A DNA stretch of 64,000 nucleotides from Prorocentrum cordatum (taxonomy: Eukaryota). Shown piece by piece: positions 3,635 to 63,449 of this stretch. The stretch's first letter is position 1. Each line of letters begins with the position of its first letter. The stretch is from assembly GCA_963575745.1 (NCBI GenBank), contig CAUYUJ010000015.1, positions 434,001 to 498,000 on the forward strand. Reading direction: 5' to 3'. Position numbers and translations under genes: made by a program. The notes below the pieces were generated by a model. The model worked only from the letters and a program-made list of their open reading frames with translations, was not told the DNA's origin and made no database searches.

Positions 3635-3955
3635 GGCACCTCCGAGCGCACTCGCGTTCACATGGGCCCCGACAAGTCGCCGAAGCAGGTCAAGATGGAA
3701 TACGTCCTTAGAAAGTGCCGCGCCGCCTTCGCCACCGAGTACCCGTCGCTGCGCCTCTTCACGGATCGGGACCGCGGGTTCCTTTCCATTGGCTGGGACA
3801 AGATTCTCAAGGTCGAGGTGGAGGCTGGGGATGCTCCTCCTACTTTGCGTTGGGACGTCGCCAAGCTGGAGCGCCACGACATCTCCAAGGCCCACGCCCT
3901 GCAGCTCACCTCTTTCCTCACGGCCTCTGCGGATGAGCCCGTGTGGTGTCTTTGA
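3635..3955 (+). CDS. C-terminal remnant of LINE ORF1 (function unknown)
   Basis: Protein-like frame (..HMGPDKSPKQVKMEYVLRK...DEPVWCL*) starts right at the (CCT)n junction; its stop overlaps the ORF2 ATG at 3933. Confidence 0.6.
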   Translation, partial: GTSERTRVHMGPDKSPKQVKMEYVLRKCRAAFATEYPSLRLFTDRDRGFLSIGWDKILKVEVEAGDAPPTLRWDVAKLERHDISKAHALQLTSFLTASADEPVWCL

Positions 3956-8537: not shown

Positions 8538-8567
8538 GCAGGCAGGACAGACCTCTCTTACGCTGGT

Positions 8568-8592
8568 CTCCTCCTCCTCCTTCTCCTCCTCC

Positions 8593-8627
<35 letters not shown>

Positions 8628-8920
8628 CTCCTGCTCCTCCCACGCCAGTCGGCCTAGGCGGCACCGTAGGCAGATCATTGCGTTAGCATTTTCCCTGTTA
8701 CAACCCCCACTGCAGAGGCATACGTTTTTAGCTGTCTAGTCAGTTTGGTACTCGTGCCTCCGATGAGCATTTTACTACCTAGCCTGACCCATTGCATATC
8801 CCTTTTTGCCGAACATGTCCCTCGATTATGTTCCTCACTATCCTCCTTCTCCTCCTCCTCCTCCTCCTCCTCCTCCTCCTCCTGCTGCTGCTGCTGCTGC
8901 TGCTGGTGCTGCTGCTGCAC
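8568..8920. repeat. (CCT)n and (CTG)n microsatellites
   Basis: Runs at 8568-8640 and 8840-8920. Confidence 0.9.
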
Positions 8921-9297
8921 CACTGAAGGGGAGAGTCCCGAAGCGTCCACAATGTGAATTGGCAAAAAGGCGACGAGAGACCCAGGACACTCCAGAGACC
9001 CCACACGCAGGACAGGTCCCAAGCCAACGCACCCACCCAAGAGGAGAGACGCAAGGAAGGAAGAAAGCAAGAGCGGGAGAGCAGAAGGCCGCGGGGGGGG
9101 TGCGCAGGCCCAGGATCCGCAGAACCCCAGACAGCACCCCCTCGGGCGAGACCCCATGACAGCCAGCAGTTCGAGCCGCGCCCAGCTGCAACGCCCGCAC
9201 GGCCCCTGCCGCCACTCACAAGGCACCTCCACGCCAGCCGAGCCTCCGCCGCACGGCTCAACCGTCCATGCACTCACCATCTCGGCCGCCATGTCAT

Positions 9298-10762
9298 TCA
9301 GGGGGGGCGCCAGGCGACGTGCACCTTCCATGTGCCCGCCTCGTGGATGCAGCTGGTGAAGCCGAGGACCCTAACCTTCTTGATGAAATTCGGCAGCTTT
9401 GCCCGCAGCACGTCCGCGGAAGGGGTCGGCATCCCATCTGGGAAAGGCGCAGCCGGTCGATGCACTGCGTAGCACCAGGACTCCGCATTGACGCCCTTGC
9501 CCCAGGAAGTCACACAGTACGTGGAGTTCGTGACGGCGCGCCGCGGGAATGCCTGGCCTGCCGGGGCAGGACCTCGAGAGACACCGCCGCCTCGCACCTC
9601 TGCTGCTCTGCCTCCTGGACGCAGCACTGCTTGAAGAGCTCGATGGCTTGGTCCAGGAGCTTGGACTCGTGGCGCTCCCAGCGCTGCGCCAAGCCCATCT
9701 TCACGGAGCACGCCTCCTGCTGAGCCTTCGTGAGCACTTGCTCGATGACCGCATCAGCCCTTGGGACGTCGGCGCAGACCGGCTCGGCGTGGATTCCCTC
9801 ATCCGCCGACGGCTCGGACGATGGTGCACGAGAAGGGCGAGGGGTCCACAGCTGTCCACGGCCGGTTCGCGCGCCCGCGCTCCCATGCCGCACTTCGCCC
9901 GAATATGTCTTTCGGCCGATCGCACTGGCGGCCTCGGCACCTGGACCGAGATTCTTACCAGCACTTGGAACTGCCGCTGCCGAAGAGCCACCTGCAATCG
10001 AGGATTCGGCACGACCACCAGCACCAGGACGATCAAGCCGGACTACATCCTCGGCTGCACGGCCAGCGACCTCCCGGATATCAGCTGCACCAGGAGGCTC
10101 GGCGTGCCTATCGCACTGTCGAAGCCCATCGTCCTCGCTTCCGAGCTGCGCTGCCGACCGCAAGCCCGTTTGCAAGCCATCGCCGAATGCGCTCGCGAGG
10201 ACCTCGACGGGCGGTAGCCAGACACCTGGGGCCGGGCCGACATCGCCCAGCACTCGGCACACGGGCGCACACGCCATTGGCACCGCCTCCACGAAGCCGT
10301 TCAAGCTTGCTTCCACATGCGAACCCATGCTCACGCACTGTTTGTCATCCTGGCCGACCTTCGAAGCCCACTCCTGGGCCTCTAGGCGTGGGCCCGCTGC
10401 CGCCGCGGCAATCTCGGCGTCGGCGGCCCGCTCGCAACCCCGCGGCGGAAGGTCGGCCGCGTGGAGCGCCGCGTTGCGGCGCCTGCGGGAGCGTCCCGCA
10501 GCCCGCTGGCCCACGGCCGCGCGCCGCAGGGCTGGTCGGGCGGCACGCTCCCGATCCTGCCAGGAGCCAGGCAGGCATGCGCAACGCCTCCAAGGCCGCC
10601 AGCCGCCTGCCGCGGGCCGCGCGGCGAGCCGCCGTGGGCCCCAGGGCGCAGACCTCGGTCCTGCGCAGCGCCTCGGGCCGCCACGTCATTGGCAGCCCCC
10701 GCCCTCTCCTCCTCAAGGGAAGCCTCCGGCCGCCCAGCAGCGCCGCGCCAAGCACCGGCCAT
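9298..10762 (-). pseudogene. Frameshifted retrocopy of an SL-trans-spliced mRNA; product unknown
   Basis: ATG at 10762, 37 nt downstream of the DinoSL; protein-like segments continue through several frames (..RRRNAALHAAD.., ..LLDQAIELFKQCCVQEAE.., ..LPNFIKKVRVLGFTSCIHEAGTWKVHVAWRPP*). Confidence 0.6.
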
Positions 10763-10799
10763 GCGAAAAATAAGGAGAAGGGCCTGGGAGGATAAACAG

Positions 10800-10820
10800 C
10801 TTGAGCCAAAATGGTTACGG
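10800..10820 (-). other. Genomic copy of the dinoflagellate spliced leader (DinoSL relict)
   Basis: Minus strand reads CCGTAACCATTTTGGCTCAAG against the DinoSL core CCGTAGCCATTTTGGCTCAAG (20/21); followed by CTG, not a GT donor, so it is not an SL RNA gene. Confidence 0.92.
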
Positions 10821-10896
10821 CTCCTCCTCCTCCTCCTCCTCCTCCACCTCCTCCTCCTCCTCCTCTTCCTCCTCCTCCTCCTCCTCCTCCTCCTCC

Positions 10897-11498
10897 CTGA
10901 TCGTCTGTGGTACACTCTCCAAGAGGATCACCGCGTTGTCCCAGATGTCGTACCTCGCGATCTCCAGCGGCGCTGGCTTAATCTGCGTGAACATCTACAT
11001 CAGCTCTCTGCGGCATGGCGTTGGGCTGTACTCAAAACACTCTGCGGGGGGTGGCACACGACGCGTAGAATGCATGTACGACCCGATCGGACGAATTGCT
11101 TCCTGGGCTGTGCTGAAGCCGATGCCATCGGCCACTACTTCCCGTGTCCTCGCCTGACCCATCGCACACGTTTGCCTCGTACCTTCGCGCTCTCGCAGCA
11201 ACTGGCGCGTATTGGGCTCGGGGCAGCTACCGAATATCCACTGGCGCCAACACATGAGCGGCCCTTGCCGACCACCATCAAGCGATTAGTCCTCGCCTAC
11301 TACATCTTCCTCGAGTTGCGCAATAATCTGGCTGATGATTGGAAAGGCTCGCAGTACGATTCCCATCTCCGCGCCCTTCGGGCAGCCCGTGATCGTCTCC
11401 AACATGGGGCACTTCCGAATCCAGCGCCGCCACGACCCCACGGAGTCACGGCTGAATCTTCTCCTCAGGCTCACTCACCTCACGGCGACGCGCCTTGA
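10897..11498 (+). pseudogene. 3' fragment of a second LINE ORF2 (CCHC region)
   Basis: AWRWAVLKTLCGGWHTTRRMH...CFLGCAEADAIGHYFPC aligns by eye with SWAWAALRTWADGWMTSHRILH...CAFGCPGHPDALRHYARC in the 3933-8537 ORF; begins at the end of (CCT)n 10821-10896. Confidence 0.8.
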
Positions 11499-12164: not shown

Positions 12165-13090
12165 GTTTCGCCCTTGAGATCCCCTCGGGGCCCAGGCGGC
12201 TCGGCCGAGCGGTCTCGCGCGAGGGCGTGTAACGCGCTGCTCTTTGGGCGCGGAGCTCGGGCCAGGCTATATGGCCTTCGTCGGGCCCGCCAACCGCAGT
12301 TCCATCCGAGGCCGCATCCGTTCTGGCATCGCGATCGGGGTCCCTTTTGGGTACCCCGCGCTCGTCTTTCTCCAGGGTTCGAGACGTTCGCCCAGGGCCT
12401 CCGCCGGGGAGATCCGACACCTCTCCCATGGGTCTGGAGGGCCTCAGCCCTGCCGATGCCGACAAAGTTCGCAAGGGCGACTTGCTGATGTTGTTTCGGC
12501 CGCTTCTGTCCGCGACGCCGTGCTCTTCAGTATCCCAGCGACGCTTGAGGATCCAGCCAGGAGCCGCATTTGGCTGTGCCCAGCGACGCACAGATTGCAG
12601 AGGTCTCAAAGCAAGGGCTCCCACGAGGGCGCGAAGTTATTCGCGCTTCGCGGTCCTCGTTCCTTCTCCCCCTCCTCCTCGTCCTCCTTTTCTCCCTTTG
12701 GGAGGGCGGCGCGAGAGCGCGAAGTTATTCGCGCTTCGCGCTTCGCGCAGCGCGAAGCGCGAAGTTGGGAGCCCTAGCAAAGGATTATGTTGGCCATCGC
12801 TGATTGTTGCACGCGGGGCGCGCCGTGGCGCATGTCGACAGCCTTCCTCGGCGCAGGCCCGCGCCTTTCCAGGCGGACCGAAGCCCGCTGTCTCGGCGCA
12901 GAGCGAGGGCTTTGCAAGCGCACGGGCCTCCCCCACGTCGCCATCCAGGGGAAGGACGAGATGGGGGTCTCCAGGTCCAAGATTGCCGAGCCCTACCCCA
13001 CTCGCCTCTGCAACACTCTCTCCCTGTCTCACTACAGCGCGTGGGCCTCGTCCAGAGCCGAGTCCTTCGAGAATAGATTGTCTGCGGCCT
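12165..13090 (+). pseudogene. Degenerate C5 cytosine DNA methyltransferase of the retrotransposon-borne type
   Basis: Motifs in the correct order across frameshifts: FALEIPSG (motif I-like LE.FSG), GTPRSSFSR (motif IV PC), GPPP.RSD..PMGL, LEDPARSRIW (motif VI ENP), DCCTRGAPWRMST, CKRTGLPHVAIQG, IAEPYPTRLCNTL (motif X-like). Confidence 0.75.
12614..12776. mobile_element. ~163-bp MITE, hAT-like (TAGGG end, ~8-bp TSD)
   Basis: TIR AGGGCTCCCA (12614-12623) / TGGGAGCCCT(A) (12766-12776); flanks TCAAAGCA (12606-12613) and GCAAAGGA (12777-12784); internal GCGCGAAG/TTCGCGC repeats; removing 171 bp joins the DNMT in frame. Confidence 0.8.
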
Positions 13091-13141
13091 TGAGTAGGCC
13101 AGAGTGCTGTTCGGATGGCCCTGATGGTCCGGCAGATTTGA

Positions 13142-13520
13142 GAGTCGTTCGAGCTCGGCCCGCTCTGCCGCGTTGGCCCCGTGGATCTCGCTCGCAAAGG
13201 TGCTCGACTTGTGGCCCGCCGTCTGGCTGGAGAAAGGAGCTCGGGGGGATGCTTTGCACATGCACGGAAATCCTTCAGAGCAGATTGGGGGCAGCCGCGC
13301 ACTCGGTGCAAGCAACTGTGCCCGCCCTATCTTGGCCTTAGTTACACCCCATCTACCCCAGCCGCCGCCCTGATTATAATTTTTGTTTTCTGCCTTGCTA
13401 GTTGCTCGTGAAAGGGAGTCGTTCGAGCTCGGCCCGCTCTGCCGCGCTGGCGTCGTGGATCTCGCTCGCAAGGGCGCTAGACTTGTGGCCCGCCGTCTGG
13501 ATGGAGAAAGGAGCTCGGGG
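13142..13520 (+). repeat. Two ~105-bp direct repeats (13142-13246 and 13416-13520), candidate split direct repeats of the YR element
   Basis: GAGTCGTTCGAGCTCGGCCCGCTCTGCCGCG...GGAGAAAGGAGCTCGGGG occurs twice, about 170 bp apart. Confidence 0.85.
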
Positions 13521-16251: not shown

Positions 16252-23645
<7,394 letters not shown>

Positions 23646-24813: not shown

Positions 24814-24879
24814 CACTTATGTTACCACTGCTGCTGCTGATGCTTGTGTCGCTGATGTTAATAGCATTACGAGTGCTAC

Positions 24880-28370
<3,491 letters not shown>

Positions 28371-32900: not shown

Positions 32901-32963
32901 GCTTACTGGATGTCTCCGTCAGATTTCTCGCCACACGATTCCCGGTTTGTTCTGTGTCGTCAT

Positions 32964-33017
32964 CGTGCAGGGCAAGACGGCGGACCCAGGCGTCATCGTG
33001 CACTGGGCGTTTCCGCC
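32964..33017 (+). pseudogene. 54-bp orphan fragment of the Helitron helicase motif V region
   Basis: 50/54 nt identical to 42175-42228 (VQGKTADPGVIVHWAFPP against VQGKTADPGFIVHWTFPP). Confidence 0.85.
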
Positions 33018-33627
33018 AGAATTTAATACTTGCAGGAGGAGCAGGAGGAGCAGGACGAGGGAGGCTCCTTACTCTTTCCTCCCTCCCCTTTCTCTTTTCA
33101 TTTCTGTACGGGGCACCCGACCCTTTATGACGTCCTCCGCAGGCCTGGGTGGTCCACTCAGGCCGCGGGGGAGGATAGGGGGCGGGGGGGTCTTCTTCTT
33201 TCCCTAAACAGCTTGATCCTCGTCGCCAGTAGCGAGGAGGGGGGGGGCGCACCGTTCCCTCGGATGGGCACACCCCCCCTTCGGGAGCTCTCGATCCCAT
33301 CTCTCTCTCCTTCTTTCTTTCCCTCCTCGAAGCAGCACTCTCAAGATCGTCATTTTCAGGCGCCTGTGGTCTCACAGCAGTGTCTCGTTCGGAGGTTCAT
33401 CCACTGATGGCAGAGAGTCGTTGGAAGCTCCCGGGCCCTTTTACTGGCAACCTACTTGTCCTTTGCCTCTGATAGCCGCGTTTGGTTCAAAACGTGCCTC
33501 CCTGGTGGCCCTCGCCGGCCGGCCCTCAGGTGCTCTTCGCGTTCCCAGAACACGTGTCCTCAACCATATATTTGACGCAAGAGGAGGAGGAGGAGGAGGA
33601 GGAAGCAACCCACCCAGAAACGAGGCC

Positions 33628-33658
<31 letters not shown>

Positions 33659-33749
33659 GTCAGCACTCTCCCCGCAGCCTTCTTGGCTAGAGCCCTGCTC
33701 TCGAAGATTTCCTTTCAAAGGAACTGCGCAGCGCCTACTGCACGATTTC

Positions 33750-36700
33750 ATGCCAGGACATGCTGGTAGTTCTCGGTCTGGCGGCGGTGCTTTTGACCCT
33801 GCTGCATTGAACAGCTGTGCTTCTCAGCCTGCGGCAATGAACAGCGCTGCTCCTCAGCGCAGTGCAGTGAGCGGCCCTGTGCGAACGCTCGTCGAGCACA
33901 TCAAGCAGTTCAACCGGATATCGAAGCGCAATAATGGAACGTCCGAAGAAGAACGGGCCGAAAACAAGTTGTACAAACGTTTCTTGTATCATTGCGACAG
34001 CATCCCCACGGACGTTTTGCTGGAGTTGCGGGCGCTCGACGGCGCCTTGTCCTCAGAGCGGAAACAGAAGACCGAGGAGCTCAATCGTGCATTGAACAGC
34101 GGTGCTCCTCAGCCTGCGGCAATGAACAGCGCTGCTCCTCAGCGTGCTGCATTGAGCGGCCCTGTGCAAACGCTCGTCGAGCACATCAAGCAGTTCGGTT
34201 GGATACCGAAGCGCAATAATGGAACGTCCGAAGAAGAACGGGCCGAAAACAAGTTGTACAAACGTTTCTCTTACCATTGCGACAGCATCCCCACGGACGT
34301 TTTGCAGAAATTGCGGGCGCTCGACGGCGCCTTGTCCTCAGAGCGGAAACAGAAGACAGAGGAGCTCAATCGGAAACGGAAGACCGAGGAGCTCATGCAA
34401 CAAGTGCGCGACCTCGGCCGCCTCCCGAAGGAGAATGCCGGGCGTTCCCTCGCAGAGCGGCAGCTGGCAGAGAGAGTCCGGAGAGCTCGGAACGCCAAGC
34501 AGTTCTCCCCGGAGCACCTCGCCGAGCTCCAGGCCTTCAAGCAGGCGGAGAGCGAAACCACAGCAGCGACTCGCATCGCGGAGGCGGAGAGCTTCCCAAA
34601 CCCCATGGAAGGGTTCGCTGAGGAGGCGCAGAACAGGATCGACCAGGACCTGCTGATGCTCGAGAGCGGCATCCGCACCAAGGCAATCCTGCGGCGCCTT
34701 GCCGCCTACAAGGAGCTTGTGTCCAGCCTCTCTGGGCAGCACGAGGAATTCGCGCGGCGGCGCGCGGAGCGGGTGCGCAGGGCTTCGGCCGCTCCCGCGG
34801 GGAAGAGCTGCTACGTTCCCGGCGGCGAGGTGGAGGGGGAACAGCTGCGCGTCTTCTCCACCCGTCCCTTGATGACGGGGCCGCTCGTGCGCCAGCTCTG
34901 CGATTGCGACTTTGTTACAGAGGAGGACTTTGCGCGGCGCAAGCAGCAGGCCCACGCGGGCGAGGCCGAATACCGCAAACGGGTGCTGTTCCTGATGGCG
35001 GAGGCCGGCTGCAGGCCGATAACCGCCCGGGAAAAGAGGCTCATGGTGCAGAATTTTGCTCACTTCCAGCAATTCTGTCACCCGGGCAGCAAGGGCAACC
35101 GCTTCTCCGGCAACGAGGTAGTCCCCCGATGCGAGGCAGCGCGCGTAATCTGCGCGCAGAAAGATTACCTTGACCACCGCCACAAACTCTGCCTCTTGGG
35201 CGCTGTGCCGGAGGAGCGTGTATCCGAGCATTGCGAGGGCGCGGAGACCGACCAGGACGACGTGTCCGAGGGCGAGGCGAATGCGCGACCCGCGCGCACC
35301 CTGCTGAAGCACCGCGGGGTGTACTACTTGCAGTCTCCGGAGCTCGTGCACAAGGTCCTTGACGTCGACAGGTACAGGCAGCGGTGGCCTTTGATACCGT
35401 GCGAGCAGCTGCACGCATCCAGCGTGCAGCATCCGGAGCATCCAGAGTGGCGGTGGCTGCTGCACACCCGTAGAGTCCCTGTGGTTGCACCATCGGAAGC
35501 TACGGCGAGCACACGCGGTGCTTCTCAGTCTGCTGCCGACAGGTCCGGCGGGGCTTCTCAGCCTGCAGACGAGAGGCCTCCGTGCGCAGGGGTCGGAGAT
35601 GACACCGCGTTGGCGTGGGCGTGCTGGGAGTGCCTCACTGACCTGTGCGCCAAGAAACCGAAGATTCCGTTCGACGCCCTCGTGAACGACAACTGGATCG
35701 GCCGGGAGCTCGAGCACGTCCGCGGCGCTTCGAAGGCTACCAAGATGCCCGCGCCCCTTGGCCGATGCTGTTGGAAGCAAGTGCGTCTCGGCAAGGGCGC
35801 TCCAGATGTCCAGCAGAAGGGCATCTCGGGCAACACCATCCTTTTCGCCCAGCCCATAGCGGAAATCCCATCCATGGAGCTGCCCCCAGCGCCAGGCACC
35901 CTTGTGGACTCTCTGAACATCGTCTTCTCGGGCGCCGCGCACAATCTCAGCAGGGCGCACTCGGCAACAGTCAAGCGCGATGAGTACATGCGCATCGTGA
36001 GGGAGCGCAAGCAGCAGTGCGCAACCTTTTCCGAGGTGTCCGTCCGGGAGGACGTCGCCTCGACACGGCTGCCCCAGGACGGCGTGCCAGACCACATCCA
36101 GGCCTGTCTGCAACCAGTGGACGGTGCCGACAAAGCTCCGGTACGTCTGTTCGGGCCAGCAGCCAGGGCGCCAGAGGTGGGAAGAGACGACGTGGCGGGA
36201 GATGAGTCTGACCAGGAGAAAGAGTCAGACCATGACAATGAAGCAACAGCACAACCTGACATGGCCTACCTGCATGAAAATGTGGCAGAGTGCACACAGT
36301 TGCAGTGGATCCAGTGCATGACGTCGCTCCAGTCCGCATGATGCAAGCGTTGCAAGGCACGCTGGCGGCACTGCAGGAACAGGCAGCACGCATCGCAAAG
36401 AACGAAGCGACACCGACAGTGGCAGACAGCAGCGGTGCTCTTCAGCCTGTTGCAGACGAAGGCGGCAGGCATACTATGCACAGCATGGTTCTCGATGCGC
36501 AGACCGCTGCTCGTTCGTTTGACGATCGAGCGCAAATGGCACTGGAGACAGCGCAAGCAGGAGCAGACGCGCGCAGGGCGGTTGGCCCGCATTCCTTGTC
36601 GGTGCCTACGCAGAAACCCTTGAGTTCTTTCGACAGCAGGTCCTGGCTGGCGTGCTTCACAGAGTTCTGGTTCGGCGACGGCGCGCCGAACCTCCAGCGG

Positions 36701-39700
36701 GAGCGGCCCATGTTGTTCGAACAGGTCGCACGACGCCTCATCAATCTGGAGGAGCTCGAGTACTCTCTCGCGACCGACGAGGAGCCCTACGAAGCAGCCT
36801 GCCAGAGTCGCTTCAACTCGCCGGAGATCGTCGCGGCCCTCGGTGACGCGAAGCGCAGGCTGCAGCTCTTGAAGGGCACCCGAGCGGCGATAGGCAGGAA
36901 AGGCTTCGGCACTGACCTTCAGGTCCTTTCAGAGGCGTCGGCGGAGGATTTCATGGAGGCGCTGAACATCGCCAAGCCAGCCGACTGCATCGGCTCTGCG
37001 ATTTCACGCCCGGGTATGCCCGCCAAGGTCAAGAGTGCCCTCAGGACGTTGCTACTCAGCACTTCCGATGCGCCCGGCACCGAGGGTCGGAAAACCGCAC
37101 TCCGCCTCGACGGGCACGCCAACAACCTCAAGTTCGGCGCGGCCAGCTTTTTCGCCACACCGAACTTCGCGGACACGTACAGCCCGTTAGTCCTCCAGCT
37201 TCACGAAGGGCCCGGAAAGCGGAGCCATTTGCACATCCGCGAGGGCGCGGTTGGCGCGGTTGCCAGGGCCGCTGGTGCTTCTCAGCCTGCTGGCCCCGAC
37301 CTGCGGAGTCCAGCGCCGACCATGCCTTCTCTGGAGCGCATGCACCAGGTTGTGGCAGCAGACCCGCGGGCGCAGGCCAAGTTCTTTCTGCTGATGACCG
37401 AACTCCACTACCGCTACATCATCGGCTTGGAGCGCCTGCTTGTGGGCCGCACAACGCTAGCCCGACAGGCTGCGTCAACGGAGGACGAGGTGGCAGCGTC
37501 TCTGCAGCCATGCGTGGCGCCAGGCACCACTGACGTGCAGGCGCCCTTCGAAGCACAGGGGCGGGGCTTCGCGCATGGCCACGGCAAAGGCCACAGCGTC
37601 ATCGGTCCTACGATGGCGTGGCTGCGATCCGCCGTGGTCGGAGGGCTGCGCACCGCCGCTCGGAAGCTGCGAACTGCGGTTCTTTCCACCGCCATGACCG
37701 TGCAGTACGAAGCTACCAACGAGCCCGCGCGGCAGCTGGGCCTTCCTGACGTCGCGCTTGAGCCTTTCACGGCCAGGCAGCAGCGCCAGAGTCGCATGGA
37801 TGGAGGCGAAGAGGAGGACGGCACCCTGCGCGACGAGGTGCCGCTCGGCCCGCCGGTGGAGCAGCCGCACCTCGTGGAGGAGCGCGCTCGCGCGGCCGCA
37901 GAGAACCGGATGCCTGCAGTCGGCGCTGCAGCGTACCGGGGCCTCCCGCTCACAGGGGCCTTCCAGTCCACGTTTCCGGCCTACCGCCAGCGAGCCAGTT
38001 TCGGGCAACTTGATGGAGCTCCTCAGCCTGTCATGCCAAGCAGTCATGTCAGCCTCTTCGAGACCAACGAGGATGGAGCGATTGTGGGAGTCCTCAACCC
38101 AGATGGCTCGCCAGCCTCAGTCGACGAGATCAACGCAGGTGCGGGCGCGTGGGCCGCGGCATTCAGCCATGACTTCTTTTGCAGCATCTGCTCCAATCAC
38201 GAGCACGACTGCACCGAGACATGCGTCAAGTACGTCAAGAAGAAGCTCGAGGCCAAAGAGAGTCTGCGCTCGAACAGGACCCCCTCGTGCCGCTTCTGGT
38301 TCTTTCGCATCCAGCAGGTATGTCTCGCAGGCCGCACCAAACGAGCACGTCGGCGCGGCAAGCCTTTGGTCCGGACTCCCTTCATCGACTTTTCTGATGA
38401 CCGCAACCAACGGTGCCGCTGCCAGGTAAAACGCGATCAGCCGTTCAGGAGCTCCAGCAACGACGTCTGTCAGGTGACGAACCGTTGCAACGTGGATTTC
38501 CAATTTTTGATGTGCGCGCCTGACGAATCCGCCGATGCAGCAGAAATGCTTGAGCCTGGTGGTGCTGCTCAGCCTGCGCAGGACGAGCCGCCTGCGCCTG
38601 CCCCTGCCCAGCTGGTCAAGCGCAGAAGGCTCACCAAGAAGACAACCATCAAGAAAATCTTTGGCTCGACTATCGCTGTGCGCCCACCACAACACCTCAA
38701 GTGGCTCTACGGTTGTGGCTGCTTGCAGCCACAGGATGCGGCGGTCGCGGAGAGCTTCCAGGTGGCTTTCCAGAAGGCTTTCTCCATGGACTTCTACATC
38801 ACGAAATACCTAGGCAAGATGATGGAGTCCATGACGCCACTCTTCCAATCCATGCTCGGCGGCACGCAGCTTCTGGAACAGCAGGAAAAGGAAGAGCAGG
38901 AGCAGGATACCCTTGAGGTGCTGCGTGAGGGCGGCGCTGATGGAGAGGACCAGACGCTGACCAAGCGACCCCGCACGAACGAGGATCTCGCTCGCCGCGC
39001 TCGGCGAGTCTGTATCCGGCTAGCGTCGATGGCGAACCGCTGCTTCTGGCTCTCCACGACGGAAGTGGCGTTGCACATCCTCACGGGCGGCGACTGCCTC
39101 CAATCGCACCATCATGTGCGGCTCTTCACGAGACAGCTGCAGTGGGCCTGCCAACAGTGCATGCGCTTGCTGAACCATGAAGGCGTGGGAGAGCTGCAGC
39201 ATAATGACCAACTGCCAATACAAGCTGTCCGCATCCAGATCCCTATCGCCGCCGATGAGGAGGAGCACGCAGCAGGTGAGCCCAGTGGTGCTTCTGAGCC
39301 TCCTGGAGAGCTCTCCGCTGATGCTGACCAGAGTGGCGTTGCGGACTGCGAGGACATGCAAGTGTGCACCTCAAGCACGAACACGGCCGACGACTACGCT
39401 CACAGGGGCCCTCGCCTGCTGACAATGCCGCACTACATCTACCGGATGTACGTCCGGCGAGCCCCGAAGCCGAGCCGCCGGAAAGCTGCTGGACCGAGAT
39501 TCTTTCTCTTCGAGAACCACTATGTTATGGCTCCGCGGTGCGAGCAGGAGGTCCGGTTGACGCGGATGAACATCCCCACCATCGACGGCTTCCAGTGCCC
39601 GACCTGGGCACAGGACCCGGAACAAAACTCGCTCTTCAAGGCCCTCCTCTTCACGCCTTGGGCGTGCGAGGGACCCTTCTCTTGTGGCAGCGTTAACCAG

Positions 39701-42426
39701 TGCAGCCATATGTCGAGGAATTGCGCCTGCCCTGCCGTTCGCCCACACTCGTTCGAGCGGGCGCGGCGGCTTCGATGCGCGGAAATCCACGTACTGGCGG
39801 CGCGCGCAGACTCCAGGTGCCGCCTGGCTCGCAAGAGGCTCGTGCTCGCGGACACGACCCTCTTCTCCGAGCTGAAAGAGCCCCGGGCGAACCTCGACGA
39901 GGGCGAGCTGGTGCTCCTCAGCCTAACGCACTTCGCAAAGTTCCAGCTAGCGCGGCGCATGCCAGTGGAGGCGGCACGGCGCATCCTCGCCTTCAGTGAC
40001 CACCACTGCCGGTGGCGCGAGGAACAGTGCACCCTGGCGGAGTTCTGCGCGCACGTGGCGCGAGACGTGCTGGCGCACGTGGACCTCGCGGCGGAGGCGC
40101 GGGTTAAGCCTCGGCCAGCAGCGTCTGCACACCTCGAAGCGGATGAAGACTCCGCGAGCGACGCCGAAGAGCTCAAGAAGCGGGTCCCGCTGGAGCTGGT
40201 TGACGTGGGCGGAGGCAGCGGCAGCGACGTGGAGGAGGAAGTGGACGACGCCGCGATTACCGAGATCTTCCTGTTTCCGCTACGGGACCACGTCAGAGCA
40301 ACCGAGCTGGCCCTGCAGCAAGACCACTTGCAGCGCTTGGACCAGAAAAGCCGCCTCAGCTATGCCGATAAACAGTTGAGGAACCTCAACCGAGCGTACG
40401 GAGGCATGCTGCAGGCGAGCTCTGGACAGCCAGCCAGCAACGGCGCGCGAGAGCATCTGGGCACGCGGCTGGACGAGAGCTTTTCTGACATGCTGCCCCT
40501 TCAGCGGCAAACCATTGAGCTCCAGAAGAAGCAAGCGAGCCGGGATCCAGAGACCTTGCCTGATGCTGCTGACGACTGGCTACCCAGCGGTGCTCCGCAG
40601 CCTGCTGCTGAGGACGCGCAGCCGGAGTTCGTGCCGCAGCTCTTGGCCATGCAGGGCCCGGCGGCTGTTGCGTGGAAGCTTGTCACTGATGCCGAATGCA
40701 CGGAAGAGCAGATTGACGCGGTATCTTTGTTCACCCTGTCCTTGCAGAAACGTTTTGACGCCAGGCCAGACAAGACAACGCATCTGCTCCCCGTGGTGTC
40801 CGCGACGGGCAACCACAGAGCGATCTGGCTCGGGGGGGGCGGCGTCGGCAAGACACGCACCCTCTCTAAAGTGGTGGAGCCGATGGCCATCACGTACTTC
40901 GGCGAGCAGGGGCACCTAGGCAAAGCACAGTCCAATCACGCCGCGCACAATCTCGGCCCGCGCGGGAGGACGATGCATTCCTCCAACGGTCTGCTCATGT
41001 CGGATTCCATGCAGACCGCTAGGCTGCGCTTGACGCCGCAGACGCAGAACAAGCTGGACCGCCTCACCGGCACACTCGGCGTCGACGTGATCGATGAGCT
41101 GGGTGCTGTGCCGGGGCCCTTGCCGCATGCGGATGCACTTCGCACGACCCACAGCAGGGCGTTGCGCTACAACCTCGACCCCACGAAGTCCATGCGCCCA
41201 CAGGAGACGTGGGGGCGCATGGCGGTGAAGATCCTCTGCGGGGACTTCTACCAGTTGCCGCCAGTCCCCGCCAGCGCCTCCCTGCTGGCGCCTCACACTA
41301 ACCAGTCCTACGAGCACCAACAGGGTAGGAAGTTGCTCGCCGACTTCGAGGACGTCATCGACTTTGCGCAGATGCAGCGCTTTACAGACCCGTTGCAGCT
41401 CGAGGTCCTCCACGCCATGAGGACTCCAGGCGGCAAAAAGATCTCTGACGAGAGCTGGCAGGCGATCGTCAAAACAGAAGTCGTTGTCCCCAGCAGTGCT
41501 GCTCAGCCTGCTGCCACCAGCAGCGAAGCCGCTCAGCAACCTCACTGGGGCGACCGCTTGCGTGCAGCACGAGGCTGGTACGAGTCGGCATATGAGTGGC
41601 GCATCGTCTCTTACGCCATGCATGCGCAGGCCAAGCTTGATGCGCACGACGCTCGCCAGCTGCTCTTCTACGCGCCGGCAATCGACAGACCAGCTGCGCG
41701 CCCCGCGAAACCTGACTTCGACGAGATGCGCGCGGAGCCCAACATCGGCGCTACGGCAAAAATGCAAGGGCTGCTGCCGCTCTTTGTCGGCATGGAGGTC
41801 ATCCTGACGGAGTCTGTTTTGCCGCCTAAGTATGTCCGTGGCGCGCCGGGCAAGGTGGTAGGCATAGAGCTGCACGCTCTGGAGCCTCCGGTGGAGGGCC
41901 GTCCGTCCATTGTCTCGCATGGTATTGCGCTACTCCGCTACATGCCAAAGGCCGTTTATGTCAAGATCGACAACAGCGATGAAGTCTTCTTGAAGGCCGC
42001 GCCAGTGACAGCTGGCAGTGCTTCTCAGCCTGCCGGCCCCGACCTGCGCGGAGTGCTCGCGATCACTCCGCTGGCGCGCCCCTGGAAGTTCAAAGCGGCG
42101 ACAGGTGGTCCGGCCATCGCGGTTTCCAGGACACAGTTGCCCGTGCTGCCCAAGAAGCAGGGCACTCTGCATGGCGTGCAGGGCAAGACGGCGGACCCAG
42201 GCTTCATAGTGCACTGGACTTTTCCGCCGGGACTCAGGAAGGAGTCCATTTGGCTGGCCTACTACGTCAGCCTCTCGCGGCCCAGGAGCTTCCGCCAGCT
42301 CTTGAGCCACGGCTTGCCTGACCGGGGCATCATCGAATCCGGCCCCCCCGAACGGGCAATATTGCCGCGACGAAGATCGCTCGCGCGAAAGCCCGAGAAG
42401 AGATAGGCTGGCCTGCGCGAGCTTGA
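33750..42426 (+). mobile_element. Helitron (Helitron2/Helentron-like) RepHel gene of ~2,900 codons with two frame breaks (~36295 and ~42350): HA-like repeats, degenerate C2H2 finger, DUF6570-like region, HUH Rep, PIF1 helicase
   Basis: Rep: FGAASFFATPNFAD, EAQGRGFAHGHG (HUH), FYITKYLGK. PIF1: GGGGVGKT, VIDELG, LCGDFYQLPPV, QMQRF, TLHGVQGKT, YVSLSRPRS. DUF6570-like: CWECL...PFDALVNDNWIG...GISGNTILFAQP. An extra CA in TGCACACAGT explains the first break; a protein-like end (..KAREEIGWPARA*) stops at 42426. Termini not identified. Confidence 0.9.
33803..34372 (+). repeat. 285-bp (95-codon) in-frame tandem duplication encoding HA-like helical repeats
   Basis: GCATTGAACAGC at 33804 and 34089; a third, diverged unit follows (LMQQVRDLGRLPKE...FSPEHLAEL). 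Confidence 0.9.
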
Positions 42427-42432
42427 GGAACC

Positions 42433-43354
42433 GTGAGACACAGAGTGTCTTGGTGCCGCTGCCTGCTCTGCCAGCGATGCTTCTCAGCTTGCTGCTCCGA
42501 GCGTGCGTTCGGTTATATCTCTGCTTGCTTGGCGAGTTCTTATACGCCTTGCAGATAACCAGCGATGTTTACCTTCAGCCTCTCGCCTTGCAGCCGCCGC
42601 TGACATGCATGCGTCCGCGGTGCTTCTGAGCTCTCAGGTCCTGTTGTATCGCTTCACGGAATGACTCACTTGAGCCCGCAGCGCTTCTCAGCCTGCCATT
42701 GCTCTTGTGAGTGCTTCCAAACAGCGTTGAGTTCAGCACCAACCTATGTTTTATAGTGGATGCTCCTGTCATTTCGTTTCTAGACGCTTCGATGCTACGG
42801 CGGTCGGCCGTTGATCGGTTGATGGCAGTGTCCCATTCCGCAAAAAAATCTATTGATAACAGTGCCTCCGTTGTACCAACATCTATCATATCAGTGAGAC
42901 ACAGAGTGTATTGGTGCCGCTGCCTGCTCTGCCAGCGATGTTTCTCAGCTTGCTGCTCCGAGCGTGCGTTCGGTTATATCTCTGCTTGCTTGGCGAGTTC
43001 TTATACGCCTTGCAGATAACCAGCGATGTTTACCTTCAGCCTCTCGCCTTGCAGCCGCCGCTGACATGCATGCGTCCGCGGTGCTTCTGAGCTCTCAGGT
43101 CCTGTTGTATCGCTTCACGGAATGACTCACTTGAGCCCGCAGCGCTTCTCAGCCTGCCATTGCTCTTGTGAGTGCTTCCAAACAGCGTTGAGTTCAGCAC
43201 CAACCTTTTTTATAGTGGATGCTCGTGTCATTTCGTTTCTAGATGCTTCGATGCTACGGCGGTCGGCCGTTGATCTGTTGATAGCAGTGTCCCATTCCGC
43301 AAAAAAATATTTTGATCACAGTGCCTCCGTTGTACCAACTTCTATCATATCAGT
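42433..43354 (+). repeat. 461-bp near-identical tandem duplication just 3' of the Helitron ORF
   Basis: GTGAGACACAGAGTGT starts at 42433 and 42894; both copies end TATCATATCAGT. Confidence 0.93.
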
Positions 43355-43609
43355 CCCGCATGTGACGCCAGATCCATTGAACACATTTTTATCACTTCAA
43401 TGACACATGCATTAGTGGCACGCAGACGCTAGTGGATACAGAGAGAACCCACTTACTGGTATTACCATTCGCCGGCTTACCACTACTACCATTACCATTG
43501 TCCTTACCACTACTAGGCCGCTCGTATATATGTTTCTACACATCGTTGTTAGGTTGCTTTGCTGGGATAATTCTTGGAGACCGTACTCTTCTGGCGGATG
43601 ACTGTTCTT

Positions 43610-44370
43610 CCCACGGCCCCAGCGGCGCAGCCCGCATGTGGGCGACGCCCCCGTTTCGGCACACCCCTCACACGTCTCGTGGCACCGCACTGAGCTCCGC
43701 CTACAATCCCATCGGCGCAGCATGCACGTGGGCGACACCCTCGTTGCGGCAAATTCCCCGTTCAATTTGGGGCCCCACGGGGAATTCCACCCGCGGCCCC
43801 AGCGGCGCAGCCCGCCCGCATGCGACGCCCTGGATTCGGCACTTCTCTTACATGTCGCGGCCCCGCAGGAAACTCCACCCACGGTCCCAGTGGCGCAGCC
43901 GGCATGTGGGCGACACCCCCGTGTCGGTGCACCCCTCACACCTCTCGTGGCCCCACAGGGAGCTGCACCTACGGCCCCAGTGGCGCAGCCCGCATGTGGG
44001 CGACACCGCCGATTCGGCACACCCTTCACACGTTTCGCAGCCCCACAGGGAGCTCCACGTTCGGTCCCAGTGGAGCGGCCCGCATGTGAGCGACACCCTC
44101 GTTTCGGCACATCCCTCACACGCTTCGTGGCCCCACAGGGAGCTCCACCCACGGCCCCAGCGGGACAGCCTGCATGTGGGCGACGCCCCCGTCTCGGCAC
44201 ACCCGTCGCACATTTCGCGGCCCCACGGGGACCTCCTCACAGTGGCGCAACCGGCATGTGGGCGACACCCCCGTTTCGGCACACTTCTCACACGTTTCGT
44301 GGCCCCACAGGGAACTCCACCTACGGCCCCACTAGCACAGCCCGCATGCAGGCGGTGCCCCATGGGGACT
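43610..44370 (+). repeat. 90-bp satellite, about 8 diverged copies (same family as 58778-60580)
   Basis: CGGCCCCAGTGGCGCAGCCCGCATGTGGGCGACACCC...GGCACACCCCTCACACGTTTCGTGGCCCCACAGGGAGCTCC with 90-bp period. Confidence 0.9.
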
Positions 44371-44469: not shown

Positions 44470-45457
<988 letters not shown>

Positions 45458-53797: not shown

Positions 53798-58640
<4,843 letters not shown>

Positions 58641-58777
58641 CCACGACGACGAGTATGTCTTTATTTATTTTATTTCCCAACCATCCTGTGGTGTCGGGTC
58701 CTCGTTTTGAAGAGACGGTGCTCCGCGTTCTCGCTTCCTTCCTCCCTCCCTCCTCCCCCCTCCTCCCCCTCCCACGC

Positions 58778-60580
58778 CCATTCTGGCACACCCCTCACAC
58801 GTTTCGTGGCCCCATAGGGAGCTCCACCGAAGGCCCCAGTGGCTGCGCCCGCATGCGGTTCCACCCCCCATTCTGGCACACCCCTCACACGTTTCGTGGC
58901 CCCATAGGGAGCTCCACCGAAGGCCCCAGTGGCTGCGCCCGCATGCGATTCCACACCCCCATTCTTGCACACCCCTCACACGTTTCGTGGCCCCATAGGG
59001 AGCTCTAATGAAGGCCCCAGTGGCTGCGCCCGCATGCGGTTCCCCCCCCCCCCATTCTAGCACACACCTCACACGTTTCGTGGCCCCATAGGGAACTCCA
59101 CCGAAGGCCCCAGTGGCTGCGCCCGCATGCGGTTCCACCCTACATTTTGGCACACCCCTCGCACGTTTCGTGGCCCCATAAGGAGCTCCACCGAAGGCCC
59201 CAGTGGCTGCGCCCGCATGCGGTTCCACCCGCAATTCTGGCACACCCCTCACACGCTTCGTGGCCCCATAGGGAGCCCCACCGGAGGCCCCAGTGGCTGC
59301 GCCCGCATGCGGTGCCACCCCCCATTCTGGCACACCCCTCACACGTTTCGTGGCCCCATGGGGAGCTCCATTGAAGGCCCCAGTGGCTGCGCCCGCATGC
59401 GGTTCCCCCCCCCCCCATTCTGGCACTCCCCTCACACGTTTCGTGGCCCCATAGGGAGCCCCACCGAACGCCGCAGTGGCTGCGCTCGCATGCGGTTCCA
59501 CCCCCCATTTCGGCACACCCATCACACGCTTCATTGCTCCATAGGGAGCTTCACCGAATGCCCCAGTGGCGGCGCCCGCATGCGGTTCCACCCGCAAGTC
59601 TGGCACACCCCTCACACGTTTCGTGGCCCCATAGGGAGCCCACCGAAGGCCCCAGTGGCTGCGCTCGCATGCGGTTCCACCCCCCATTCTGGCACACCCC
59701 TCACGCGTTGCGTGGCCCCATAGGGAGCTCCACCGAAGGCCCCAGTGGCTGCGCCCGCATGCGGTTCCACCCCCCATTTCGGCACACCCCTCACACGCTT
59801 CGTGGGTGGCTCCATGGGGAGCTCCACCGAACGCCCCAGTGGCTGCGCTCGCATGTGGTTCCCTCCCCCCCCATGTCGGCATACCCTTCACAGAGTTCGT
59901 GGCCCCATCGAGAGCTCCACCGAAGGCCCCAGTGGCTGCGCTCGCACGCGGTTCCACCCACTTGTTTCGGCACGCCCTTCACACGTCTCGTGGCCCCATA
60001 GGGAGCTCCACCGAACGCCGCAGTGGCTGCGCTCGCATGCGGTTCCACCCCCCATTTCGGCGCACCCCTCACACGCTTCGTGGCCCCATAGGGAGCTCCA
60101 CCGAAGGCCCCAGTGGCTGCGCTGGCATGCGGTTCCACCCCCCCATTCTGGCACACCCCTCGCACGTTTCGTGGCCCCATATGGGGCTCCACCAAAGGTC
60201 CCAGCGGCACTGTCCGCTTGCGTCCGCAACCACCCAGCACAGCCCTTGTTCCTTGCGCTTCGCCCACCCAGAACAGCGCTTCGTAGCCCTATAGGGAGCT
60301 CCACCAAAGGTCCCAGCGGCACCGCCCGCACGCGCCCGCCACCACCCTGCACAGCCTTTGTTCCCTGCCTGCGTTTCACCCACCCAGTACAGCGTTTCGT
60401 GGCCCCATAGGGAGCTCCACCGAAGGTCCCAGTGGCACCGCTCGCATGCGTCCGCCACCACGCAGCACAGCCCTTGCTGACCGCGTCTCACCCACCCAGT
60501 ACAGCGCTTCGTGGCCCCATAGGGAGCTCCACCGAAGGTCCCACTGGCACCGCCCGCATGCGTCCGCCACCACCCAGCAC
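58778..60580 (+). repeat. 90-bp satellite array (~16 copies) grading into ~114-bp variant units
   Basis: CCATTCTGGCACACCCCTCACACGTTTCGTGGCCCCATAGGGAGCTCCACCGAAGGCCCCAGTGGCTGCGCCCGCATGCGGTTCCACCC; TTCTGGCACA at 58781 and 58871; longer units after ~60190. Confidence 0.95.
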
Positions 60581-60659: not shown

Positions 60660-62930
<2,271 letters not shown>

Positions 62931-63449
62931 CGTTTCCCGTTACGACAACGATGACGACAAGGACGGCACTTACGACGACCACGACAACGACGACGACCAC
63001 GACAACGACGACGACGACGACGACGTCGACGAAGACTGCTGCTGCTGCTAATCATTGCCTCCTACTCCCCCTTGTCCTTTCCCCCTCATCCCGCCCCCCT
63101 TCTTCTGCATTCTCGTCGTCGAGGAGGAGGTCGACCGAGCCTGCGCGGCCGTGGACGGCCTTGCCACCGCGGCGGAGGCCGCCGCAGCCGCGAACCCCGC
63201 CGCAGCGGCGGGCCTGGCGCAGGCGGCGGGGGGAGGGGCGGGGGGGGAAGGAAAACCCCCCAGATCTCCAACTTGATTTTCCTTTTCCCGGCGGCTTTTC
63301 CTTCATCATTTTTTGTGTGTTTGCGGGGCCAGGGGCCATCAACAATGGACCCGGGGCGAAAATAGTAGAGGGAGAGTGACAACGAATCTGAAAAGATTCG
63401 TTGTCGGGTGGGGGGTCGCCCACCCTCTTTCGTCTCTTAACCGTTGAAG

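Follow-up and report, generated by a model that had tools for sequence, protein, structure and literature searches.

Helitron-like elements are usually described with cis signals at their ends only. In the available parts of two papers (PMC4778049, PMC11417382), the terminal hairpin at the 3' end of Helitrons is the terminator of transposition, and the second of these, the HELIANO paper, gives the domain DUF6570 as a marker of the HLE2 (Helentron/Helitron2) group of Helitron-like elements. We analysed 64,000 nucleotides of Prorocentrum cordatum DNA (assembly GCA_963575745.1, contig CAUYUJ010000015.1, positions 434,001 to 498,000 of the forward strand; this whole stretch is the window, and its positions are counted from its first letter), which hold a long gene whose domains predict a Rep-helicase element of the DUF6570 type (HLE2), this copy being slightly damaged. 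The element resembles HLE2, as far as the sections at hand describe the group, in its single long Rep-helicase with DUF6570, its putative PIF1-like helicase and, in a relative, an RPA-like accessory gene. It differs in that its Rep and PIF1 Pfam scores fall below the cut-off, in that the protein reaches ~2,700-2,900 aa in intact relatives, and in that terminal inverted repeats, a 3' stem-loop and a T-T insertion were not identified here. In this family, which abounds in marine metagenomes, a conserved, covarying stem-loop is written into both the coding sequence and the accessory genes. Like the Helitron 3' hairpin, which those same sections have the Rep-helicase read, the stem-loop is short and lies on the sense strand of the transposon; unlike it, it is not single and subterminal but present in 17-20 copies per element, mostly coding, with an invariant loop. 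A literature search of the main texts in a limited full-text library turned up neither an internal hairpin array of Helitron-like elements nor the peptide encoded here, and such an array, embedded in coding sequence, may be new.

The first-pass annotation of the window had described a 17-bp motif, GGTGCTTCTCAGCCTGC, repeated in one orientation through this gene. We counted matches to the motif on both strands of the whole window, allowing up to 3 or up to 4 mismatches. At up to 3 mismatches there are 19, on the + strand only and spanning 33786-43157; dinucleotide shuffles, 100 in all, averaged 0.24 matches and never came up to 19. Relaxing the limit to 4 mismatches yields 25 forward matches (22 within the element) and 1 reverse match. 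The 12 copies listed at first (starting at 33816, 34101, 35517, 35550, 36434, 37274, 38015, 38561, 39287, 40589, 41495 and 42017) are indeed all on the + strand with 0-3 mismatches, and they read G/S-A-S/P/A-Q-P-A in the frame of the open reading frames (ORFs) 33750-36341 and 36290-42406. That the motif always keeps to one frame is true of these 12 but not strictly, as the in-ORF copies 39910 (read L-V-L-L-S-L) and 37048 (within the conserved peptide L-L-L-S-T-S-D) use another frame; two additional N-terminal copies, 33846 and 34131, read A-A-P-Q-R. The copies reported 3' of the stop codon are real as well (42476, 42619, which is weak, and 42680, repeated 461 bp further on at 42937, 43080 and 43141), and they lie in no long ORF. 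A scan of the whole window without filters with R1, a covariance model of the hairpin described below, gave 17 matches at E <= 0.003, all on the + strand and all inside the element (33805-43166). The best match elsewhere has 14.4 bits (E = 0.3), so that the other 54 kb of the window contain nothing better and the motif is element-specific, as had been supposed; the R1 scan found the surrounding repeats, as well as the 720 bp that precede the ATG, free of hairpins. The exact 17-mer has 7 lone matches in 2.9 million viral contigs, which we treated as background without a computed expectation, and no relative of the Rep-helicase protein was found in that collection.

The 17-mer is the loop and 3' arm, that is, the apical part, of a stem-loop of ~23 nt on the sense strand. 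We set position 0 at the G of GCT and picked instances by the invariant core GCTNCTCAGC alone (138 on the + strand, 3 on the - strand). Positions -6 to -2 are paired with +10 to +14, often further out, in a covarying lower stem of 5-8 bp; position -1 is a bulged pyrimidine; G0-C1-U2 faces A7-G8-C9 in an upper stem; and N3-C4-U5-C6 forms the tetraloop (NCUC). The upper stem is invariant and therefore allows no covariation test, its only common variant being C1-to-U, which retains a wobble with G8. RNAalifold, run independently, returned a 5-bp lower stem, a one-base bulge (the -1 pyrimidine), a 3-bp upper stem and the tetraloop N-C-U-C. Watson-Crick pairing reaches 90% at -2/+10 (GC 85, AT 23, TA 12, CG 4 of 138) and 87% at -5/+13 (GC 70, AT 29, CG 18, TA 3), followed by 70% at -6/+14 (with 12% G·U wobble), 64% at -4/+12 (25% wobble), 50% at -7/+15 and 29% at -3/+11 (57% wobble), and pairs beyond -8/+16 are at the background level of ~25%. 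The longer match seen at first between copies 37274 and 42017 is explained by the longer stems of both hairpins.

The lower stem covaries. Mutual information is highest at -5/+13 (1.02), -2/+10 (0.90) and -6/+14 (0.52). In an alignment of 132 distinct rows (A3), 199 cells are altered on both sides of a pair, a number that not one of 500 shuffles attained (97.6 +/- 10.1); as the related loci include close kin of each other, these are counts of changed cells and not of independent events. The covariation score is 0.494, against 0.253 when shuffled and 0.09-0.22 with the partner slid by 1-3 columns. Grouping of orthologous sites through the protein alignment revealed compensatory changes between lineages, for instance at the site upstream of the helicase, where G:C stem pairs give way to T:A and A:T pairs to G:C. 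The wobbles are strongly asymmetric (G·U 77 vs A·C 7; U·G 32 vs C·A 1; G·U 15 vs A·C 5), and G·U is the commonest pair at -3/+11 (77/132). Only the sense strand thus folds, which excludes a double-strand palindrome or iteron. Of the initial proposal of iteron-like binding sites, an array of binding sites survives as the general reading that fits best, while the double-strand repeat gives way to a sense-strand hairpin with covarying stems and G·U far in excess of A·C; iterons also fit poorly with sites that are dispersed over more than 9 kb rather than clustered and that form a single-strand structure. As RNA the hairpins fold at a mean of -8.98 kcal/mol, against -6.93 for flank-shuffled controls, with the stem kept in 96/132. 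No Rfam 15 match at E <= 1 was obtained over 33000-43400.

The array extends to related elements. Searches with the Rep-helicase protein returned 30 homologues of 31-79% identity, the full-length ones having 2,285-2,882 residues in a single frame; 21 carry A-[SPA]-Q-P, 1-12 times each where 0.1-0.3 are expected, and the 9 without it are mostly distant. At the DNA level we used 33 metagenome contigs with related loci (40-86% identity, G+C 0.46-0.65), which bear no poly(A) tails and are thus genomic. At up to 3 mismatches they hold 112 coding-strand copies of the motif and 3 copies on the opposite strand, and R1 at E <= 0.01 gives 123 matches in 25 loci, 120 of them on the coding strand; the 3 antisense matches belong to Rep-helicase fragments that lie inverted nearby, relative to which they are sense. 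In one locus (L010, 1-520), two Rep-helicase copies stand head to head, ~400 nt apart, with a hairpin ~10 nt upstream of one start codon. Hairpin density is ~1-1.8 per kb in all genes of a subclade of the element family, and three distant loci (L015-L017) do have a few hairpins, with a GTT loop variant. One of these, L015, contains an 11-nt tandem repeat at 370-660 (units like CTTTTAAAGG) inside a Rep-helicase locus that lacks the canonical array; a lineage-specific replacement motif was considered there and rejected, as the repeated words are this tandem repeat and not a variant hairpin. Comparison of the related copies, along the lines that the first-pass annotation had proposed, showed fixed synonymous positions and orthologous sites across relatives of ~50% protein identity, and the loop and upper stem are invariant across 40-60%. 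A self-propagating micro-insertion, another of its proposals, fits neither the ~23 nt to which conservation is confined nor the compensatory changes at sites orthologous over such distances; likewise, in-frame inserted mini-elements such as the Rickettsia palindromic elements (units of at least ~100 bp that some orthologues have and others lack) were rejected because information is limited to -6 to +15 and the sites are orthologous across distant relatives.

The initial remark that T-ending codons mark the motif was confirmed at sites chosen without regard to DNA, namely 121 occurrences of x-A-[SPAT]-Q-[PL]-x-x in ORFs of the + strand. Of these, 115 encode Ala by GCT (background 25%) and 111 encode Gln by CAG (background 62%), while the codon that follows Ala is NCT in 106; CCT is used for Pro in 64/92 (background 26%) and CTT for Leu in 25/29 (background 18%). 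Synonymous fixation at such divergence points to selection on the nucleic acid. (The small excess of identity at four-fold sites inside over outside hairpins, from tblastx, was contaminated by non-coding frames and was not used.) Among 173 sense-strand copies of the 13-nt core with at most 1 mismatch, 142 are in the frame of a long ORF, 11 are in another frame and 20 lie in a short ORF or none, often adjoining start or stop codons. At least 4 of the 5 stem pairs are kept in 98/109 in-frame copies, 9/12 other-frame copies and 16/17 copies without a long ORF, compared with 6.7% of random positions. The other-frame hairpin within L-L-L-S-T-S-D recurs in 9 loci, the window (37044-37066) among them, by way of fixed codons for Leu and Ser. 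Moreover, the residues flanking the loop covary (G-P 63, D-L 20, S-P 19, V-H 8, A-R 4) in a way that is senseless as protein chemistry and matches exactly the second-codon-position base pair -2/+10, making the peptide a by-product. The constraint is therefore at the nucleotide level, as had been suspected: the hairpin is under selection as nucleic acid, and G-A-S-Q-P-A is its translation in the only frame acceptable to flexible loops of the protein.

These data bear directly on a function of the peptide itself, either as a protease cleavage site or as a docking motif between polyprotein domains. Such a function would suit the position of the motif in variable linkers of the Rep-helicase and in low-confidence loops of the RPA-like model (see below), as well as its 10-40 fold enrichment at the peptide level in the 21 homologues. 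It would leave unexplained why synonymous positions are fixed, why untranslated and other-frame copies keep both loop and stem, and why flanking residues change in chemically unrelated but base-complementary pairs; in addition, Pfam detected no protease domain in the window protein. We regard it as largely refuted and hardly credible, and this includes the polyprotein cleavage site put forward by the first-pass annotation. If it is read by a protein of the element or of the host, the hairpin would offer a clean natural case in which the structure of a nucleic acid sets a peptide that recurs in disordered loops. It is also a caution that repeated 'linker motifs' of giant proteins are not necessarily protease sites.

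A role as C-to-U editing sites was also considered. The 3'-most loop base is the C of CAG, in frame in the 142 copies counted above, in a YUC-A context, so that its deamination would turn Gln into a UAG stop and yield nested shortened proteins; this geometry is like that of the preferred hairpin substrates of APOBEC3A-type deaminases, and two flanking copies of one locus (L032) read TAG at this place. A simple pattern search, however, found no deaminase signature in the proteins of the element, untranslated and other-frame copies are kept equally well, and C6 is 97% conserved in DNA, which together make editing very improbable.

The hairpins might also be functionless products of mutation, created and repaired in tolerant linkers by template switching or slippage at quasi-palindromes. 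According to the part of PMC8794818 available to us, template switching can make stems and apparent compensatory changes in one step. Local duplication does occur: of 144 hairpin spacings across loci, 29 separate tandem pairs by only 14-57 nt. Relatives also differ in how many copies a linker holds. (Spacing looks even in the window; across loci it is bimodal and otherwise broad, with a coefficient of variation of 0.89, and regular spacing was rejected.) Mutation alone would not account for the invariance of the 10-nt loop and upper stem at the protein divergence given above, nor for the same loop in three unrelated gene families, the copy in a conserved peptide by way of fixed codons, and the strict strand bias. 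We consider this explanation improbable.

The three gene families come from one 13.5-kb contig (L018), in which the Rep-helicase ORF is followed by same-strand ORFs and spacers that also carry hairpins. The ORF at 8109-10073 has 80 homologues (36-100% identity), with the peptide motif in 54 of the 80; these contain 72 sites, where 2.5 are expected, in two conserved places. Its protein has no Pfam match. An AlphaFold2 model (pLDDT 87.3) shows the motif places as low-confidence loops (residues 391-400 and 514-530), and Foldseek aligned the model to 9pd4_N (E = 1.5e-17), 4gop_C (5.3e-16) and 1jmc_A (TM 0.67 on the target). On this structural prediction the product has the tandem OB folds of an RPA70-like protein, and the RPA70-like genes are an unannotated accessory gene family of these elements; their homologues (at least 80 in public data) are mostly on 2-3 kb contigs. 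The third family is represented by the ORF at 12482-13519; the motif is repeated in the four homologues examined (P0115-P0118), one of which, P0118, contains five P-G-A-S-Q-Q-L-A-L-P-A-P units in tandem. The Pfam search did not reproduce a PF26933 label that had been precomputed for this family. A further ORF of the contig, 10512-11171, resembles the N-terminal repeats of the Rep-helicase. It yields the only hint of a helicase-associated domain, a weak Pfam match (E = 0.04, 14.7 bits against a cut-off of 28.4), and the 'HA-like' character first ascribed to those N-terminal repeats comes down to this single match in a related locus.

We tentatively favour, as close to probable, an array of protein-binding hairpins that acts on the transcripts of the element. 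Each hairpin would be a binding site for one factor that reads both sequence and structure, and the array would be multivalent; the reader might be a host RNA-binding protein with affinity for pyrimidine loops or a domain of the element's own proteins. The hairpins would thereby mark all mRNAs of the element (those of the Rep-helicase, the RPA70-like gene and the third gene) for a shared post-transcriptional step, in which they might be exported, stabilised, controlled in translation or captured by proteins that the element encodes. The RNA level is narrowly preferred over the DNA level because the hairpins are clearly stable as RNA and marginal as DNA, because one position of the stem favours a G·U wobble, because the hairpins keep to ORFs and their immediate borders, and because many internal hairpins recognised by Rep should harm a rolling-circle element.

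The same array could instead operate on single-stranded DNA: the strand peeled off by the Rep-helicase would fold, and its loops would be bound by Rep, by the helicase or by the RPA70-like protein, so as to coat, protect or mark the intermediate, to reload the helicase or to prime second-strand synthesis. We hold this to be possible, though distinctly less than probable. Hairpins whose loops or feet are conserved are the typical targets of HUH enzymes. The structure is strand-specific and its loop pyrimidine-rich, hairpin density in the window is highest in the 3' region (4 strong copies in ~1 kb), and the RPA70-like gene of L018 itself carries a hairpin, as do 54/80 members of its family at the peptide level. 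The 3' hairpin as Helitron terminator (PMC4778049, PMC11417382, as far as the sections at hand go) points the same way. As DNA, on the other hand, the hairpins are barely stabler than controls (-4.28 vs -3.59 kcal/mol, with the stem kept in 72/132), G·T wobble is preferred at one stem position, and many internal hairpins recognised by Rep should give premature termination or fragmentation. The 5' untranslated flank of the window copy is devoid of hairpins, and no RPA-like gene was found near the window element.

Several points weigh against hairpins that act on mRNA. No sequencing run recorded as RNA contains the stretch. The carrier is predicted to encode a Rep of the HUH type and a helicase, to which relatives add an RPA70-like binder, and proteins of all three kinds act on single-stranded DNA. 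A transferred strand would share the sequence of the mRNA, so that orientation cannot separate the RNA level from the DNA level, and a gene antisense within an element, which would separate them, was not found in the related loci. Nor need the hairpins be restricted to transcribed parts, as the ends of the element were not identified. The stems are weak in several window copies, and 8 of the 33 related loci have no sense-strand R1 match at E <= 0.01, so that the array is not essential to the whole family. To our knowledge, an RNA hairpin array in a DNA transposon has no precedent.

Among systems in which proteins read hairpins or short motifs, the closest analogues are dispersed viral packaging signals, the hairpins of HUH enzymes and stem-loops by which sets of mRNAs are tagged. 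HUH proteins read hairpins at the origins of CRESS-DNA viruses and rolling-circle plasmids, at the ends of IS200/IS605 elements and in REP sequences with their RAYT partners. There, as here, a variable covarying stem presents a conserved single-stranded motif in a strand-specific manner, and REPs are likewise dispersed and multi-copy; in contrast to the present array, those hairpins lie outside genes, number one or two per replicon (REPs excepted) and serve nicking, whereas nicking at each of the ORF-embedded hairpins would fragment the element. The origin hairpin of an HUH Rep, with one origin per replicon, was rejected for the same array given its 17-20 copies per element. The localisation elements in the coding sequence of ASH1 and the histone mRNA stem-loop tag sets of mRNAs for one RNA-binding protein and, like the present hairpins, lie inside or beside ORFs; they differ in having one to four copies, in their motifs and in belonging to host genes. 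The DNA uptake sequences of Haemophilus and Neisseria, linear double-strand motifs in coding regions with a known function in uptake, share with this array the accumulation of a nucleotide-level motif in the frame and protein positions where it does least harm; they are bacterial, double-stranded and linear, and show no stem covariation. Finally, single-stranded RNA viruses and hepatitis B virus have, in the parts of PMC6281560 and PMC7612645 at hand, dispersed packaging signals, many degenerate stem-loops in coding sequence that present one loop motif to one protein. The present element shares the many stem-loops with a common loop motif along its length, as our scans showed; it differs in being a DNA transposon with no capsid gene known (no capsid-like Pfam match above cut-off was found in the proteins searched) and in a far better conserved loop (10 invariant bases).

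A further, rather unlikely possibility is that the hairpins are the identity code of the mobile element. Each of its genes, and with them the transferred strand, would bear one common loop on a stem that can vary freely; proteins of the element (the RPA70-like OB-fold protein, or else the DUF6570 region or N-terminus of the Rep-helicase) would read this loop to pick the element's nucleic acid from among that of the host. If true, this would be a cis-recognition like that of packaging signals in a eukaryotic DNA transposon, written into its coding sequence. Were the hairpins read by such proteins or by a factor of the host, they would provide a handle on the recognition of a 9-kb intronless transposon message or of a single-strand intermediate, and with R1 a ready marker for locating this family and its cargo genes.

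The carrier itself was assigned from its domains. DUF6570 (PF20209) is found in the first ORF (E = 4.9e-10, 40.4 bits against a cut-off of 24.3) and also in the related proteins P0004-P0006, and the second ORF shows, in the expected order and below threshold, Helitron_like_N (19.6 bits, cut-off 28.9) and PIF1 (21.4 bits, cut-off 25.9). The alignment contains a conserved Walker-A-like G-G-G-G-V-G-K-T and a Y-I-T-K-Y motif, which may be the catalytic motifs. Relative to its homologues, the window copy has a frameshift near 36296-36335 and has lost the last ~35 residues after 42352. In contigs of four public runs, other copies have 2 nt fewer at 36291-36293, which restores one frame, and possess the 29-34 nt that the window copy lost at 42353; most copies in these runs, as well as L008, are intact at both sites, from which we conclude that the window copy is slightly damaged. 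The flanks of one full copy, searched for terminal inverted repeats, gave a single inverted match of 10 nt, about what chance would yield, and neither a 3' stem-loop nor a T-T insertion site was identified there. The features of the element are collected in the table.

Features of the Rep-helicase element in the window, with scores of the hairpin model R1
Feature	Position	Strand	Reading or remark	R1 score
N-terminal ORF of Rep-helicase gene	33750..36341	+	863 aa; DUF6570 at residues 636-767; frameshift before next ORF	
Hairpin	33812..33834	+	in frame, C-A-S-Q-P-A	28.1 bits
Weak hairpin	33842..33864	+	in frame, A-A-P-Q-R-S; C:G pair at -2/+10	11.6 bits
Hairpin	34097..34119	+	in frame, G-A-P-Q-P-A	23.2 bits
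Hairpin	34127..34149	+	in frame, A-A-P-Q-R-A; 6-bp stem	32.4 bits
Weak hairpin	35513..35535	+	in frame, G-A-S-Q-S-A; tandem pair with 35546..35568	13.5 bits
Hairpin	35546..35568	+	in frame, G-A-S-Q-P-A	26.3 bits
Main ORF	36290..42406	+	2038 aa; predicted Rep (HUH-type) region and PIF1-like helicase; C-terminus shortened by deletion at 42353	
Hairpin	36430..36452	+	in frame, G-A-L-Q-P-V; 7-bp stem	22.7 bits
Hairpin	37044..37066	+	other frame, in conserved T-L-L-L-S-T-S-D; site occupied in 9 loci	28.0 bits
Hairpin	37270..37292	+	in frame, G-A-S-Q-P-A; exact 17-mer; outward stem extension with one mismatch	31.2 bits
Hairpin	38011..38033	+	in frame, G-A-P-Q-P-V	25.6 bits
Hairpin	38557..38579	+	in frame, G-A-A-Q-P-A	31.2 bits
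Degenerate copy	39283..39305	+	loop CTGAG; G-A-S-E-P-P	13.8 bits, E = 0.42
Hairpin	39906..39928	+	other frame, L-V-L-L-S-L; also in L008 (86%-identical relative)	25.8 bits
Hairpin	40585..40607	+	in frame, G-A-P-Q-P-A; orthologous in 5 other loci, compensatory stem changes	25.7 bits
Hairpin	41491..41513	+	in frame, S-A-A-Q-P-A	34.7 bits
Hairpin	42013..42035	+	in frame, S-A-S-Q-P-A; 8-bp stem	32.9 bits
461-bp 3' unit, two tandem copies	42434..43355	+	per copy, two strong hairpins and one weak	
Hairpin	42472..42494	+	3' of stop codon; variant GAT...CTT, A:T at -2/+10; top score of window	36.0 bits
Hairpin	42676..42698	+	untranslated 3' region	26.4 bits
Hairpin	42933..42955	+	461-bp duplicate's copy of 42472-42494; loop position 1 C-to-T	22.8 bits
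Hairpin	43137..43159	+	461-bp duplicate's copy of 42676-42698	26.4 bits

Directly upstream of the element, at 32960-33020, the window encodes the fragment H-G-V-Q-G-K-T-A-D-P-G-V-I-V-H-W-A-F-P-P-E, which corresponds to the C-terminal helicase motif of another Rep-helicase copy. A 5' truncation recurs at ~36723, the point at which similarity to the window breaks off in L008 (1-310) and in contigs from three runs; upstream of this point they have a 27-nt tandem repeat or ACT-like repeats, and no hairpin lies at the point itself, which may mark a 5'-truncated subfamily or an alternative left end. Loose contig ends cluster at hairpins (33817, 34095/34127, 35515/35568, 37290, 43135), and this may merely reflect variable linkers. 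Joints between hairpins in the run contigs were rejected as deletions: their sides are only ~20 letters, and we read them as alignment of the shared motif.

The surroundings of the element are rich in repeats. Trinucleotide arrays, (ACT)n, of up to 7 kb occupy 16252-23614, 24876-28234, 44525-45457, 53798-58504 and 60665-62931 of the window, and ACT/AGT-type microsatellites also abut related elements (the 3' end of L008 and the 5' ends of L012 and L022), which suggests a link between this element family and ACT arrays. A 1,774-aa ORF at 3213-8537 on the + strand contains a reverse-transcriptase domain (RVT_1, E = 1.2e-9) and represents a retroelement without hairpins. Two 90-bp tandem repeat arrays with closely similar units (43610-44348 and 58777-60208) flank (ACT)n blocks on either side of a GC-rich segment.

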